Positions 13,904 to 18,541 of a stretch of 25,862 nucleotides of DNA are shown here, piece after piece. The translations under genes were made by a program, and so were the position numbers. This stretch comes from a virus (Duplodnaviria; Heunggongvirae; Uroviricota; Caudoviricetes). Positions within the stretch are counted from its first letter, which is position 1. Every line of letters begins with the position of its first letter. The DNA lies in IMG/VR virus record IMGVR_UViG_2908572912_000005, positions 1 to 25,862 of that record; one strand, given 5' to 3'. The notes under the pieces were generated by a model. The model saw only the letters and a program-made list of their open reading frames with translations, had not been told where the DNA came from and ran no database searches.

Positions 13904-14096
13904 TCAACACTCCCACAACAAAAAGCCACAGCAATCAAAAAATGAGCACGCAGAATCAAAATGCTCTCTAATCGTAACGCATTTTGAGATTTTTGATACG
14001 TTTTTTTGGGATTATGTAACGCCAAATGGTCATTTTGTGTCAGAAAAATAAATCTTAGTACCGAGAATATGTAGCTTCCATCCTTCATCGTTCTAT

Positions 14097-14543: not shown

Positions 14544-15305
14544 TCACTTTTCCGATACAACACGGCGGGAAGAATCAGTAATCTGTCGAACAATATCCCG
14601 GTGCTTGTTCAGCTCCCGCAGCGCGGCGCAGACTCGCTCCCACTTCTGGACATGATTTTTCGCCCGACGCAGTTCACGGTTTGCCATATGCAGCGATGGT
14701 AAAATCAGGTTATCCGCTTGCGTTTCAGTAAACGATGGCAACGACTGCACAATGTCCGCCACAGTTTCTGTTTTAATATCTTCCTGTGTTGCAGCTTCCT
14801 GTACTGGTAACGCAACACCGGCTAGCTGAGGAAAGGCTTTACCATCTGTTTCCGCTACCGATGCAGCTTTCGGCTCTGCTGGTAAATTACCGCCCGGCAT
14901 GCAGTAACGAAATTTACCGTTCTGATTAACGCGAATCAGACGAGCTTTGCTGATTGCCATTGCCAGCGTTGAAGCCACTTTGCGGGATGTGGTACCGAAC
15001 AACGTAGCCAGTTCATCCGCAGTTAGTGGACCACGTTGTTCAATCGTCGCAGTTAAATCGCTCTCTGAAATTTTCGCGACTGTTGCCGTGGTAGTTTCTT
15101 CCGGCAGTTCTGCCGGCGCTGGCTGTTCCTGCTGAACGTTGTTATCAGCCACACGCCAGGTGTACGCGCTTTTATCAACGAAACCAGCCTTTTTCAGTTC
15201 CCATAGTTCGTTCAGCACTTCTTCACGGCTGATATCAAGTCGCGCAGCAAGTTCTATGGATGTGGCTTTTCCCATTGCTTTCAGTGTGTCAAAAACAGTC
15301 TCCAT
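14544..15305 (-). CDS. Hypothetical phage protein, YdaW/DUF1627-like by position and N-terminal winged-helix-like segment
   Basis: ATG at 15305 ([43 protein letters not shown]...), GGAGA ribosome-binding site; directly downstream of the DnaC-like gene as in Rac-type prophages. Confidence 0.55.
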
Positions 15306-15327
15306 TAAATTTTTCTCCCGGTAAAAA

Positions 15328-16074
15328 TTACTTCGCAATTCCTGGCTGGACGACATTCGGACGCCAGCTCTCCCAGTTAAAATTCACCCATCGCCCGCCG
15401 TTCATGGTCATGCGATCCATAATCCTCTCGCCGAGCAATGTTTTCATGGCCTCATAATTCAGGTTTGTCAGCATCCCCACGCTGCGCATCGACGCTGTCC
15501 GGCGATCAACAATCTGGTGCAGCACCACCTGCTCGTTTTTTGTCTCGCGCTGAATGCCAATTTCATCAAGAACCAGCAGATCCACTTGGCACAGTTCCCG
15601 CAAAAATTTTTCGCCTGATTGCCCGTCGTCATAGCTGGCGTGTAGGGCACTCATGACATCAGCCACGGTAACCACAATCACTGTCTGGCCATCTTTCAGC
15701 AGGCGATTCCCGATAGCCGCCGCCAGATGGTTTTTTCCGGTACCAGGTTTTCCGCTGAACGCAAAATTTGTACACCCGGTCATCAGTTCATCAGCGATGG
15801 ATTTCGCCTGACTCAACGCGTATCGCTGCCCTTCGTTCTGCACCTGGTAATTCGAAAACGAGCATTTGCGGTGCAATGGCTGGATGCCAGAGCGATTCAG
15901 AATTTTTTCCACCCGCAACTGACGATTCTGACGGTTGATCTCCTCACAACGTTTCTGGCCTTCGGAAAGTTGCCACTCGCGCCACTCCGCTACCGTTTTG
16001 AATGGGGCGGTTACATGTGGCGGGGCCAGTCTGCGGATACGTTCAAGAATGCCGCCTGCCGCAATATTTTTCAT
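15328..16074 (-). CDS. ydaV: DnaC/IstB-like helicase-loader ATPase (YdaV-like)
   Basis: 248 aa; Walker [16 protein letters not shown], Walker B LLVLDEIG; replication-module position. Confidence 0.85.
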
Positions 16075-16080
16075 GGTCAG

Positions 16081-16869
16081 TTACCCCCTGAAGCCTGGCG
16101 GGATCGCACTATCCGGTAACGAGACGGTGTTAACCTGTCGGAGTAACGTCTCAGGTCGAACACCTTTTGGCGCGAACAAGCCCTGGTATTCATTGGCGAT
16201 GCTGTGTCGAATCACCTGCTCAGGTGAAAAACCCTGCTGGCGGAATTTTTCCAGCTCCCGTATCGCCCCGTTAGCGCCCTGCTCCGTTCGAATCGGTTTT
16301 CGCAATGCCTGCCTGAACTGAACCCACTCATGCCAGAGTGTTTCCGGCAACCAGTCAGGCAGCTCGATAGCCTCCGGTTCGAATTTTTTAGACGCTCGTT
16401 TTTGGCGAGGGGGATTTAGGGGGAGATAAGTATTTATATCTTCCTCTTTCTCTTCCTCTGGTAACGCTTTTTGATCCGTTTTTGTAACGCTGGCAGCGTT
16501 ACCTTTTCGTTTCAGTTCTCGTATTTTTGTTACTCTCTCGTTTGTAACCGCCCGTTTTTTAGAGCTTTTCCCGTTATGGCGCTCAAAGTTAGGAAGCGAC
16601 AACACACCATTAGTTTCGACCAGCCATCCAACCTGAATTAACGCATCAGCAAAACCAGCCATAAAAGTGATGCGATCTATTGCACTTTTTGTAACGCCGC
16701 GAGCGTTACACTCTGCGTTACCGTCTATCATTTGTTGATCCGCCCATGCCCAGAAGCGAATGACTTTCCCTAATGCGGCATCTGGATCAATATTCAGAAT
16801 CTCAGCAAGCCTGAATATTTCCGGCTTATCCGGCGTAATAACTTCGAGCTTTATCCAGTTTGAAGCCAT
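16081..16869 (-). CDS. ydaU: Phage replication protein (YdaU-like, with DnaT-like C-terminal region)
   Basis: 262 aa; immediately upstream of the DnaC-like gene; contains and is preceded by dyad-symmetric repeats (see the repeat feature at 16483..16933). Confidence 0.7.
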   Translation of the reverse strand: MASNWIKLEVITPDKPEIFRLAEILNIDPDAALGKVIRFWAWADQQMIDGNAECNARGVTKSAIDRITFMAGFADALIQVGWLVETNGVLSLPNFERHNGKSSKKRAVTNERVTKIRELKRKGNAASVTKTDQKALPEEEKEEDINTYLPLNPPRQKRASKKFEPEAIELPDWLPETLWHEWVQFRQALRKPIRTEQGANGAIRELEKFRQQGFSPEQVIRHSIANEYQGLFAPKGVRPETLLRQVNTVSLPDSAIPPGFRG

Positions 16870-16933
16870 TTGTTTTCACCTTGTAACGCTCGCAGCGTTA
16901 CATTTAACTGATACCGAACAAAACAGTTCGGTA
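16483..16933. repeat. Three copies of a dyad-symmetric element TGTAACGC-N5-GCGTTACA plus a second 8-bp-arm palindrome; candidate origin iterons or operator sites
   Basis: Copies at 16483-16502 (7-bp arms), 16690-16710 (8-bp arms, perfect) and 16882-16902 (8-9-bp arms), about 200 bp apart, two inside the ydaU-like coding sequence and one just upstream of its start; extra half-sites at 16461-16467 and 16715-16722; separate palindrome TACCGAAC-N6-GTTCGGTA at 16912-16933. Confidence 0.5.
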
Positions 16934-16946
16934 CGATTAATTTCAA

Positions 16947-17369
16947 TCAATGCACTACGACAGAATCGCTAGGAGAACCGCCGCCGCTGAAATGTGCTTT
17001 ACGGTAAACGGCCTGGACTGCATCATCATGCGCATCAATTGCCGTACTCAGTGCATCCTGTGCCGCCAGTAATGCACGGCGTTCCAGGGTATCGAAGATG
17101 CAGAGTCGGTGACGCAGCTCGCGAGGAAGAATTGCCAGAACCGCAGGGATCAGTTTCTGAATTTTTTCCCTTTGCGCATTCGTTTCACCTTTCAACCAAC
17201 GATGATAGATATTCTGCTGATTGTTCCAGTCCTTGCCTGGTACCAGGGGCAATTCGCCGCCCCCCTGGCGCAGATATTCTTCAGTAATTGCGTTAGCGAC
17301 CCACGCCTGCCCTTTTTCGGCTGCCAGGGCTAACAACACTGATTCGATGTGCTCATGCTTGATTTTCAT
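16947..17369 (-). CDS. ydaT: YdaT-like protein
   Basis: 140 aa starting MKIKHEHIESVLLALAAEKGQAWVANAITEEYLRQGGG..., matching my recollection of Rac YdaT; start overlaps the upstream stop in an ATGA junction. Confidence 0.75.
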   Translation of the reverse strand: MKIKHEHIESVLLALAAEKGQAWVANAITEEYLRQGGGELPLVPGKDWNNQQNIYHRWLKGETNAQREKIQKLIPAVLAILPRELRHRLCIFDTLERRALLAAQDALSTAIDAHDDAVQAVYRKAHFSGGGSPSDSVVVH

Positions 17370-17620
17370 GAATCAACTCCCATCAGCTTTTTCGTAGTAG
17401 TTTTATTTCTGCCAATAGTTAAAATTGCATCGGCAGAAAATAATCCGTTTGATGCATGAGCGATTTTTTCAGCGTAATTTGTTTCGCCGGTATATTCTGT
17501 GCGAGGCAATTTTCCGTTATCCATCCATTTGTAGATTGCTCTTTGGCTGACACCACAAACGTCGGCCACAACAGAAACGCGAACAGTTTTGATTACATCT
17601 TCAAGTGTTTTCTGGTTCAT
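17366..17620 (-). CDS. Cro/YdaS-like helix-turn-helix regulator
   Basis: 84 aa from the ATG at 17620 with GAGGA Shine-Dalgarno; HTH-like segment VADVCGVSQRAIYKWM; divergent from the CI-like repressor gene. Confidence 0.7.
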   Translation of the reverse strand: MNQKTLEDVIKTVRVSVVADVCGVSQRAIYKWMDNGKLPRTEYTGETNYAEKIAHASNGLFSADAILTIGRNKTTTKKLMGVDS

Positions 17621-17640
17621 ATCATCCTCACAATGTGAAC

Positions 17641-17699
17641 TTTGAGTACATGCTATAACAGAACTGACAGTACATTCAAGAGCGAATATCATTGAACTT
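17641..17699. promoter_or_regulatory. Immunity-switch intergenic region (OR-like) with two AGTACAT motifs and candidate divergent promoters
   Basis: AGTACAT at 17645-17651 and 17669-17675. Leftward candidate promoter: -35 TTGAAT (17675-17670), -10 TATAGC (17652-17647). Rightward candidate: -35 CTGACA (17665-17670), 17-nt spacer, -10 TATCAT (17688-17693), which would place the transcript start at or near the repressor ATG at 17700 (leaderless). Confidence 0.4.
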
Positions 17700-18119
17700 A
17701 TGGTTCATGAAGATAAAGCGCGTAAAGAGTTCGCCAGTAGGCTTGCGCTAGCCTGTGAAAACGCTGGTTATGAACAACATGGAAGGCAGGCAGAAATTGC
17801 CCGTCGAATGAAATTAACACCAAAAGCGGTTAGCAAATGGTTTAATGGTGAAACAATTCCTCGCCGAGAGAAATTAAGGGAATTAGCAACACTCATTGGA
17901 ACAACACCAACCTATCTTTTGGGAGAGGATACAGAAGAAAGTGGACAGATACGTTTCTATCAGGAGTTAAATCCAAGACAAAAAATCATCATTGACCTTC
18001 TGGACGAGCTCCCTGACAGTGAGACAGATGAACTTTTAAAAACTCTTGAGGAGAAAAAACAGAAGTACAATGCAATTTACGAAGAGTTAGCACGAAAGAA
18101 AAAACAAAAAGCCTCTTAA
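17700..18119 (+). CDS. CI-type (XRE-family HTH) prophage repressor, RacR-like by position
   Basis: 139 aa; HTH segment RQAEIARRMKLTPKAVSKWFNGE; divergent from the cro-like gene; no Shine-Dalgarno before the ATG. Confidence 0.7.
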   Translation: MVHEDKARKEFASRLALACENAGYEQHGRQAEIARRMKLTPKAVSKWFNGETIPRREKLRELATLIGTTPTYLLGEDTEESGQIRFYQELNPRQKIIIDLLDELPDSETDELLKTLEEKKQKYNAIYEELARKKKQKAS

Positions 18120-18191
18120 ATCAGCATAAATCCGGTAGCGTCCCCCTCCGGGTTTGTGCTTCACTTTATCCCGTCTCATTTTTTTATACAT

Positions 18192-18241
18192 AAAATGTAC
18201 TTAAAGTACTTTACAATGATGAACACAAAGTACATTATATA
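18192..18241 (+). promoter_or_regulatory. OL/pL-like operator-promoter region: palindromes sharing the (A)GTACA(T) core, overlapping a candidate promoter
   Basis: ATGTACTT (18195-18202), perfect 10-bp palindrome AAAGTACTTT (18203-18212) and AAAGTACATT (18227-18236); candidate -35 TTACAA (18211-18216) and -10 near 18234-18241, oriented toward the plus-strand early-left genes. Confidence 0.4.
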
Positions 18242-18406
18242 CCTACCAACCCACCCCGCCCCACAGAACGCAGGGCAATACTTCGAGTTACCAGGCAGTG
18301 GTAAGGGGTTAAGTAGCCAGCCCGAGGCGTATGAACATGACGGCGGGATTCAAATTTTGCAGTGCAGCAGTTAGTTCCGCCACCCGGCGTTAAGGGGAGA
18401 GATAAG

Positions 18407-18541
18407 ATGGTGCATTACGAAGTAGTTCAGTATTTGATGGATTGTTGCGGTATCACTTACAACCAGGCTGTGCAGGCTTTACGCAGCAACGACTGGGATC
18501 TCTGGCAGGCAGAAGTCGCTATACGTAGCAACAAGATGTGA
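18407..18541 (+). CDS. ydaG: Small protein YdaG-like (44 aa)
   Basis: ATG at 18407 with AAGGGGAGAG upstream; length and position (between repressor and ydaF/sieB) match Rac ydaG. Confidence 0.5.
   Translation: MVHYEVVQYLMDCCGITYNQAVQALRSNDWDLWQAEVAIRSNKM

Follow-up and report, generated by a model that had tools for sequence, protein, structure and literature searches.

The window (the whole stretch of DNA that was analysed, 25,862 bp) is a Rac-like prophage and was 100 % identical to E. coli ECONIH4 over the 2.4 kb tested. Its minus strand carries a cro-like gene (17366–17692), ydaT next to it (16947–17369), a replication initiator gene (16081–16869) and, immediately downstream of the latter, ydaV (15328–16074); a repressor gene (17700–18119) is transcribed divergently on the plus strand, with recE further on. 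The ydaV product is a DnaC/IstB-like AAA+ protein (PF01695, E=6e-20) and is presumed to be a helicase loader. The window allele was present with at least 80 % query coverage in 675 of 5,426 complete E. coli genomes, and in isolated phages, for example ON470614 (vB_EcoS-666R9), the initiator region was 99.8 % identical and annotated as ‘replication protein O’. In many E. coli genomes the match to the query breaks off close to the ydaT start, at about query position 2076, and the repressor-like gene encodes 139 aa, compared with 158 aa (477 nt) for racR of K-12; the immunity region thus appears to be a different allele from that of K-12 Rac.

The initiator gene encodes 262 aa, arranged as an N-terminal domain (residues 1 to ∼120), an acidic linker and a C-terminal domain (residues 139–262) of the K-12 YdaU type. 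BLASTP gave 81 % identity between this C-terminal domain and residues 162–285 of K-12 YdaU and found no similarity in the N-terminal part, and hhalign of the initiator family against the N-domain of K-12 YdaU detected no homology. The K-12 N-domain matches DUF1376 (PF07120, 2.7e-26), whereas the N-terminal 120–138 residues of the window protein matched no Pfam family at E≤0.01. The protein is therefore a member of the YdaU family by its C-domain and not by a DUF1376 N-domain, and the name ‘ydaU-like’, which had been given to the gene in a first-pass annotation made from the letters of the window, holds for one half of the protein and fails for the other. The PHROG 2509 profile, whose annotation name is ‘replication initiation protein’, matched over the full length (residues 1–262, E=4.7e-88). 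Searches with the N-domain recovered 6,390 representatives of 50 %-identity clusters at E≤0.001; at E≤1e-10 the number was 3,943.

An AF2 model of the initiator (mean pLDDT 75) was mostly confident for the N-domain (approximately residues 11–100) and the C-domain and of low confidence for linker residues 125–149. The N-domain was modelled with helices at residues 16–25, 29–48, 61–68 and 73–80 and a beta-hairpin at 84–91; the fold may be winged-helix-like. No relative of solved structure was found by sequence, and Foldseek of the model against the PDB returned nothing significant. Against BFVD, matches were obtained (E=1e-4 to 1e-9) to models named DUF1376, replisome organizer, primosomal protein and replication protein; their TM-scores were low because the two domains are differently placed, and the matches to DUF1376 phage models were only remote. 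With modest confidence, the model places the protein structurally among the two-domain initiators of phages.

Three dyads of the form GTAACGC-N5-GCGTTAC lie in and just before the initiator gene. Site C (16883–16901, GTAACGC-tcgca-GCGTTAC) is situated 32 nt upstream of the initiator ATG, directly 5′ of the Shine–Dalgarno sequence at a distance of 5 nt. Site A (16691–16709, GTAACGC-cgcga-GCGTTAC) lies at +160 of the gene and encodes C-N-A-R-G-V-T, and site B (16484–16502, GTAACGC-tggca-GCGTTAC) lies at +367, in the linker of low model confidence between the two domains; both are in frame and encode xNAxxVTK. The start-to-start distances are 207 and 192 bp. When up to two mismatches were allowed, the dyad pattern had exactly three matches in 25,862 bp, compared with 0.04 expected from 100 shuffles. 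All three regularly spaced palindromes that had been reported in the first-pass annotation were thus recovered at their positions; the arms, then put at 7–9 bp, measured 7–8 bp (7 bp at site B, and 8 bp at sites A and C if the flanking T/A is counted).

The GTAACGC half-site occurred 16 times in the window (2.3 expected), and nine of these copies fall within 16461–16901. The isolated half-sites noticed earlier were also found: a direct GTAACGC copy in gene sense at 16715–16721 (minus strand, +148), 12 bp upstream of site A, and a GCGTTAC copy in gene sense at 16461–16467 (plus strand, +402), whose start lies 23 bp downstream of that of the site B arm and which abuts a polypurine tract. Two more half-sites (13974–13980 and 14016–14022, 42 bp apart) lie ∼2.9 kb downstream of the initiator start in an A+T-rich stretch with no convincing gene; their position was not kept in the relatives compared, and they are probably due to chance.

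Related loci were taken from genomes and viral contigs, and those more than 90 % identical to another were removed, which left 73–79 non-redundant loci; the collection was made by using conserved-core peptide patterns and may be biased towards conservative members. The loci span Enterobacterales, Pseudomonas, Burkholderiales, Planctomycetota, Verrucomicrobiota (including Akkermansia) and Ignavibacteriae. Counted from the ATG in 79 loci, half-sites were concentrated in four bins (35 at −100 to −1, 136 at +100 to +199, 135 at +300 to +399 and 23 at +400 to +499) over a background of about one per 100-bp bin elsewhere. Site A was found at +148, +151 or +160 in 60 of 73 non-redundant loci and site B at +337 to +424 in 58 of 73. 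An equivalent of site C, with the arms kept and the spacer variable, was present at −32 to −44 in 12 of 73 loci, all of them enterobacterial, and 13–15 of the 73 had no recognisable sites. The distance between sites A and B ranged from 189 to 264 bp, with no clean signal of helical phasing across the 73 loci. Some of the loci without recognisable sites have other repeats at this place: the divergent locus L071 (an Anaerolineales MAG) lacks GTAACGC sites but shows four TGTCCG direct repeats with an 11-bp period at +369 to +408, the position of site B.

Each arm position of the dyads holds approximately 2 bits of information, and the 5-nt spacer is variable. Additional copies of the half-site accompany the dyads: a direct copy at −12 of site A in 18 of the 60 loci with this site, up to two direct GTAACGC copies before the site B dyad, in steps of 12 bp (present in 24 of 58 loci), and at least one extra GCGTTAC copy 11, 12 or 23 bp past site B (49 of 58). 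The reading frame of site A is constant and encodes G-N-A-x-x-V-T, in which N, A, V and T are nearly invariant residues, whereas site B was found in all three reading frames (38, 13 and 4 loci), so its conservation does not stem from protein coding. At third codon positions within the arms of site A the entropy averaged 0.69 bits, compared with 1.67 bits for the other 102 codons, and none of 100,000 permutations reached the observed value; like the other conservation statistics, this test takes no account of kinship among the loci. Loss of the palindromes among related prophages in spite of synonymous freedom had been named at the outset as an observation that would tell against a function; the arms are in fact conserved at synonymous positions.

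The second conserved element lies directly beside site B. In gene sense, the half-site at 16461–16467 is followed by a polypurine tract (AGAGGAAGAGAAAGAGGAAG, 16440–16459, minus strand), an A+T-rich stretch (ATATAAATACTTATCT, 16424–16439) and two C5 tracts (CCCCCTAAATCCCCC, 16409–16423, minus strand); the first two are candidate parts of a DNA unwinding element. The GC content has a local minimum, 0.367, at 16430–16489. In the 58 loci with site B, the longest purine run within the following 110 nt had a median of 19.5 nt (range 10–33), whereas control windows had a median of 6 nt and never exceeded 15 nt. In many relatives the purine tract is succeeded by an ATATAAA-like sequence, after which C5 tracts often come, and C-tracts similar to those of the window are present in many enterobacterial relatives. 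Most of the linker is variable, and the conserved peptide in it, ‘KALPEEE’ or ‘ALPEKRREEK’, is what this DNA element encodes. The T-rich stretches that had been put forward as unwinding elements (16380–16400 and 16555–16575) code for Lys and Arg, and the conserved element is that at 16424–16459.

Comparison between lineages linked the sites to the N-domain. K-12 Rac is a prophage of the same type, with the order cro-like gene, ydaT, initiator gene and ydaV and with ydaV and ydaT approximately 95 % identical at the DNA level, yet it carries the DUF1376 N-domain and has no GTAACGC site in 5 kb. Conversely, the phages BUCT554, ST11-OXA245phi3.2 and TL-2011b share only the N-domain with the window (∼68 % nucleotide identity), have a DnaT-type C-domain (PF17948) and retain two perfect dyads, 209 bp apart and with different spacers. 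The K-12 exchange loses the sites and the DnaT-type phages keep them; it is thus with the N-domain module that the sites move. The gene that follows the initiator also varies, and in relatives is lambda P-like (PF06992; loci L002, L053 and L067) or DnaB-like (L014 and L035).

In K-12 Rac, the N-terminal half of ydaU contains four direct repeats of the TTGAACATC type, compared with 0.27 expected (TGTTTGAACATCTGC type, positions 2705–2996 of locus L001), which are candidate iterons of the K-12 allele. A comparison with oriJ of K-12, which had been recommended as a check on the dyads, would accordingly be uninformative: K-12 Rac has no GTAACGC sites, repeats of its own and a different N-domain. 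Since the N-domain and the repeats both differ, published oriJ data are not transferable to the window allele; the name ‘ydaU’ covers what appear to be two unrelated origin-binding modules, and prophages of the window type should not be interpreted in the light of oriJ of K-12.

In five lineages, an altered half-site was found at all copies of the locus together. The form GTCACGC/GCGTGAC characterises a Pseudomonas/Burkholderiales clade and occurs also in L036 and L051, that is, in at least two lineages; in L036 it arose independently, as its nearest relatives are of the GTAACGC type. Locus L042, from a Planctomycetales MAG, is the cleanest switch of specificity of a whole putative origin: all nine half-sites between +148 and +400 read GTTGCGC/GCGCAAC, and both dyads have the spacer tccga. 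The half-site is GTTACGC/GCGTAAC in L034 and CTAACGC/GCGTTAG in L054. Concerted switches of this kind point to a co-evolving, sequence-specific trans factor that is encoded in the same module, and they argue against a host factor as well as against a purely structural hairpin.

Taken together, the dyads, their satellite half-sites and the polypurine/A+T tract probably constitute a replication origin of the lambda type embedded in the initiator gene. It is textbook knowledge that an initiator gene can contain the origin. In lambda, four iterons (18-bp dyads of the ATCCCTC-AAAAC-GAGGGA type) occupy +348 to +432 of gene O, next comes a purine-rich A+T tract, and then P. The window resembles this arrangement in several respects: the putative origin is intragenic and falls in the linker that joins the two domains of the initiator; the dyads are 18–19 bp long (about 7-N5-7), and site B at +367 (+337 to +424 in the family) coincides in position with the iterons; a purine-rich A+T tract on the sense strand follows the sites, and the gene for the presumed helicase loader is next; and the sites and the N-domain are exchanged as one module. 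Lambda O itself shows no detectable homology to the window family, with no PF04492 match and an hhalign probability of 0.1 % for the family profile. The layout differs, too, in that lambda has four contiguous dyads where site B comprises one dyad and one to four half-sites, in that a second dyad lies ∼200 bp upstream within the coding sequence of a folded domain (and in this lineage a third before the gene), and in that the half-site of the GTAACGC family is nearly constant across phyla. What is unusual here is that one dyad of this split layout falls in folded-domain coding sequence, that the half-site hardly varies across phyla and that it switches so cleanly in concert.

Other initiators offer partial parallels. 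The replisome organizer, DnaD-like and DUF1376 initiators, such as gene 38 of SPP1 and that of lactococcal TP901-1, have origin repeats inside their own gene; they are two-domain proteins whose N-domain is thought to bind the intragenic repeats, which are direct repeats and not dyads with a 7-bp half-site. The window protein shares with them the two domains and the BFVD matches but lies outside those sequence families. Iteron plasmids (RepA/RepE/pi) likewise use one half-site in direct and inverted repeats, have one inverted repeat just upstream of the initiator gene and have a winged-helix-like fold, which may also be that of the window N-domain. A literature search for oriJ, ydaU, this initiator family or the GTAACGC motif found no relevant paper.

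On this comparative basis, the following scheme is proposed. The putatively winged-helix-like N-domain would bind a single GTAACGC half-site, and the 19-bp dyads (7-N5-7) of sites A and B, in this lineage also that of site C, would each hold an initiator dimer; flanking half-sites, one or two helical turns away, would take up further protomers. The assembly would distort the DNA beside site B, so that the polypurine/A+T tract at 16424–16459 opens, and the C-domain would recruit the DnaC-like YdaV with host DnaB or, in relatives, a phage DnaB or a loader of the lambda P type. For site C, an accessory role in the origin and autoregulation as an operator are both conceivable; it adjoins the ribosome-binding site, and autoregulation could operate in addition or instead. 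We infer binding, unwinding and origin activity alike from sequence. The locus has the features by which this class of origin is recognised, namely dyads at the junction of the N- and C-domains, an A+T-rich, strand-asymmetric tract, a loader or helicase gene next to it and sites that co-vary with the N-domain. The initiator itself is most likely the dimeric protein that binds the dyads; linkage alone cannot prove this, because the sites are unavoidably in cis to the sequence encoding the N-domain. The lambda-type origin suggested in the first-pass annotation is thus the reading best supported by the comparative evidence, albeit with its unwinding elements relocated. The alternative given there, a dimeric regulator on three operators, is not a separate one if the binder is the initiator, and only the upstream copy is a plausible operator.

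It is nevertheless conceivable, though unlikely, that all the dyads are autoregulatory operators for the initiator or another dimeric regulator, possibly with looping between upstream and internal sites, and have no role in initiation. Site C stands immediately 5′ of the Shine–Dalgarno sequence, the spacing of ∼200 bp would fit looping, and in iteron plasmids inverted half-iterons serve as rep operators. The distribution of the sites speaks against this explanation, however, as site C is confined to 12 of the 73 lineages while sites A and B are near-universal, and the sites stay where the neighbouring regulators vary between loci. Operators would also leave the polypurine/A+T tract by site B and the direct half-site arrays unexplained. 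A promoter at site C was considered and rejected, since a consensus scan found no promoter-like site near it on the gene strand.

Clearly less probable still is that the palindromes act as hairpins in RNA or single-stranded DNA, that is, as elements of mRNA stability or translation or as signals for primosome assembly, rather than as binding sites in duplex DNA. Every dyad can fold with a stem of 8–9 bp, the variant lineages have altered both arms so that pairing is preserved, and a DnaT-like domain is present in many relatives. A hairpin would, however, be expected to drift with compensation, which is not seen: the arm sequence is near-invariant across phyla at ∼2 bits per position, and where it changes, one new sequence is adopted by all sites of the locus. 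Moreover, the isolated direct half-sites at steps of 11, 12 and 23 bp cannot pair, and a search of 15000–18500 against Rfam 15 gave one chance-level match (E=0.86) and no family.

That the repeats merely reflect chance or the coding of the peptide N-A-x-x-V-T-K, and do nothing as DNA, has a negligible probability: sites A and B of the window are indeed in frame with the same peptide, and four of its residues are nearly invariant at site A, but this explanation was rejected, as it is contradicted by the three reading frames of site B, the non-coding position of site C, the frozen synonymous positions, the chance expectation of 0.04 and the finding that Asn-to-His at site A comes with a synonymous GTT-to-GTG change and the same change at site B.

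A different kind of element is the second palindrome, TACCGAAC-N6-GTTCGGTA (16912–16933, minus strand), which lies between the ydaT stop and the initiator start. It is present and perfect, as first described, but does not belong to the set of origin or operator sites with which it had been grouped, as pairing survives among its variants only in sense RNA. It was found only in ydaT-linked relatives, with three alleles among 37 loci; all substitutions are transitions, which maintain the stem by G.U pairs in the sense RNA (minus strand of the window) and would give C.A mismatches on the other strand. A 9-bp stem is predicted, with no U-tract after it. The palindrome probably forms a hairpin in the mRNA beyond the ydaT stop codon and is unrelated to the GTAACGC sites. 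An oop-like antisense RNA ending at 16912–16933 was also considered and rejected: the terminator-like matches on the plus strand have no real T-run, and the allelic variants stay paired only in the sense RNA.

The concerted switches raise one further idea, which concerns site A. The change from GTAACGC to GTCACGC converts Asn55 into His, while the other arm undergoes the synonymous GTT-to-GTG change and site B changes in the same way. Only one column of the alignment, Asn55-to-His, tells GTCACGC and GTAACGC loci apart, and it does so in at least two independent lineages; no other residue in the alignment tracks the half-site variant. Asn usually contacts A, and His G. Site A could thus be self-referential, the encoded G-N-A-x-x-V-T loop helping to form the surface by which the GTAACGC half-site is read, so that one mutation would alter both the target and the reading residue, and the other copies would follow. 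We regard this as quite improbable; the Asn55 column is forced by the genetic code and hence lends the idea little weight. If true, it would couple the specificity of the initiator to its own coding sequence and could account for a site that hardly changes across phyla while still switching in concert.

If the lambda-type origin is confirmed, the common Rac-like replication module of these prophages will have an origin defined at the sequence level. Paired GTAACGC dyads followed by a polypurine tract would then serve as an annotation signature for a family of ∼6,400 clusters that has no Pfam coverage, and the natural half-site variants would be a ready test system for joint changes of initiator and origin specificity.

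Two further observations concern the evolution of the module. The conserved N-domain gives way to the interchangeable C-domain (YdaU-C, DnaT types and others) just where the conserved half-site and polypurine DNA lie, at 16400–16470 in the window and likewise in relatives, and this DNA could be a recombination joint for domain shuffling. Stieleria magnilauensis (NZ_CP036432) carries two copies of the initiator gene with identical site sequences (L019 and L020, at 7.98 and 8.02 Mb), approximately 44 kb apart, a pair that could represent a duplicated or tandem prophage.
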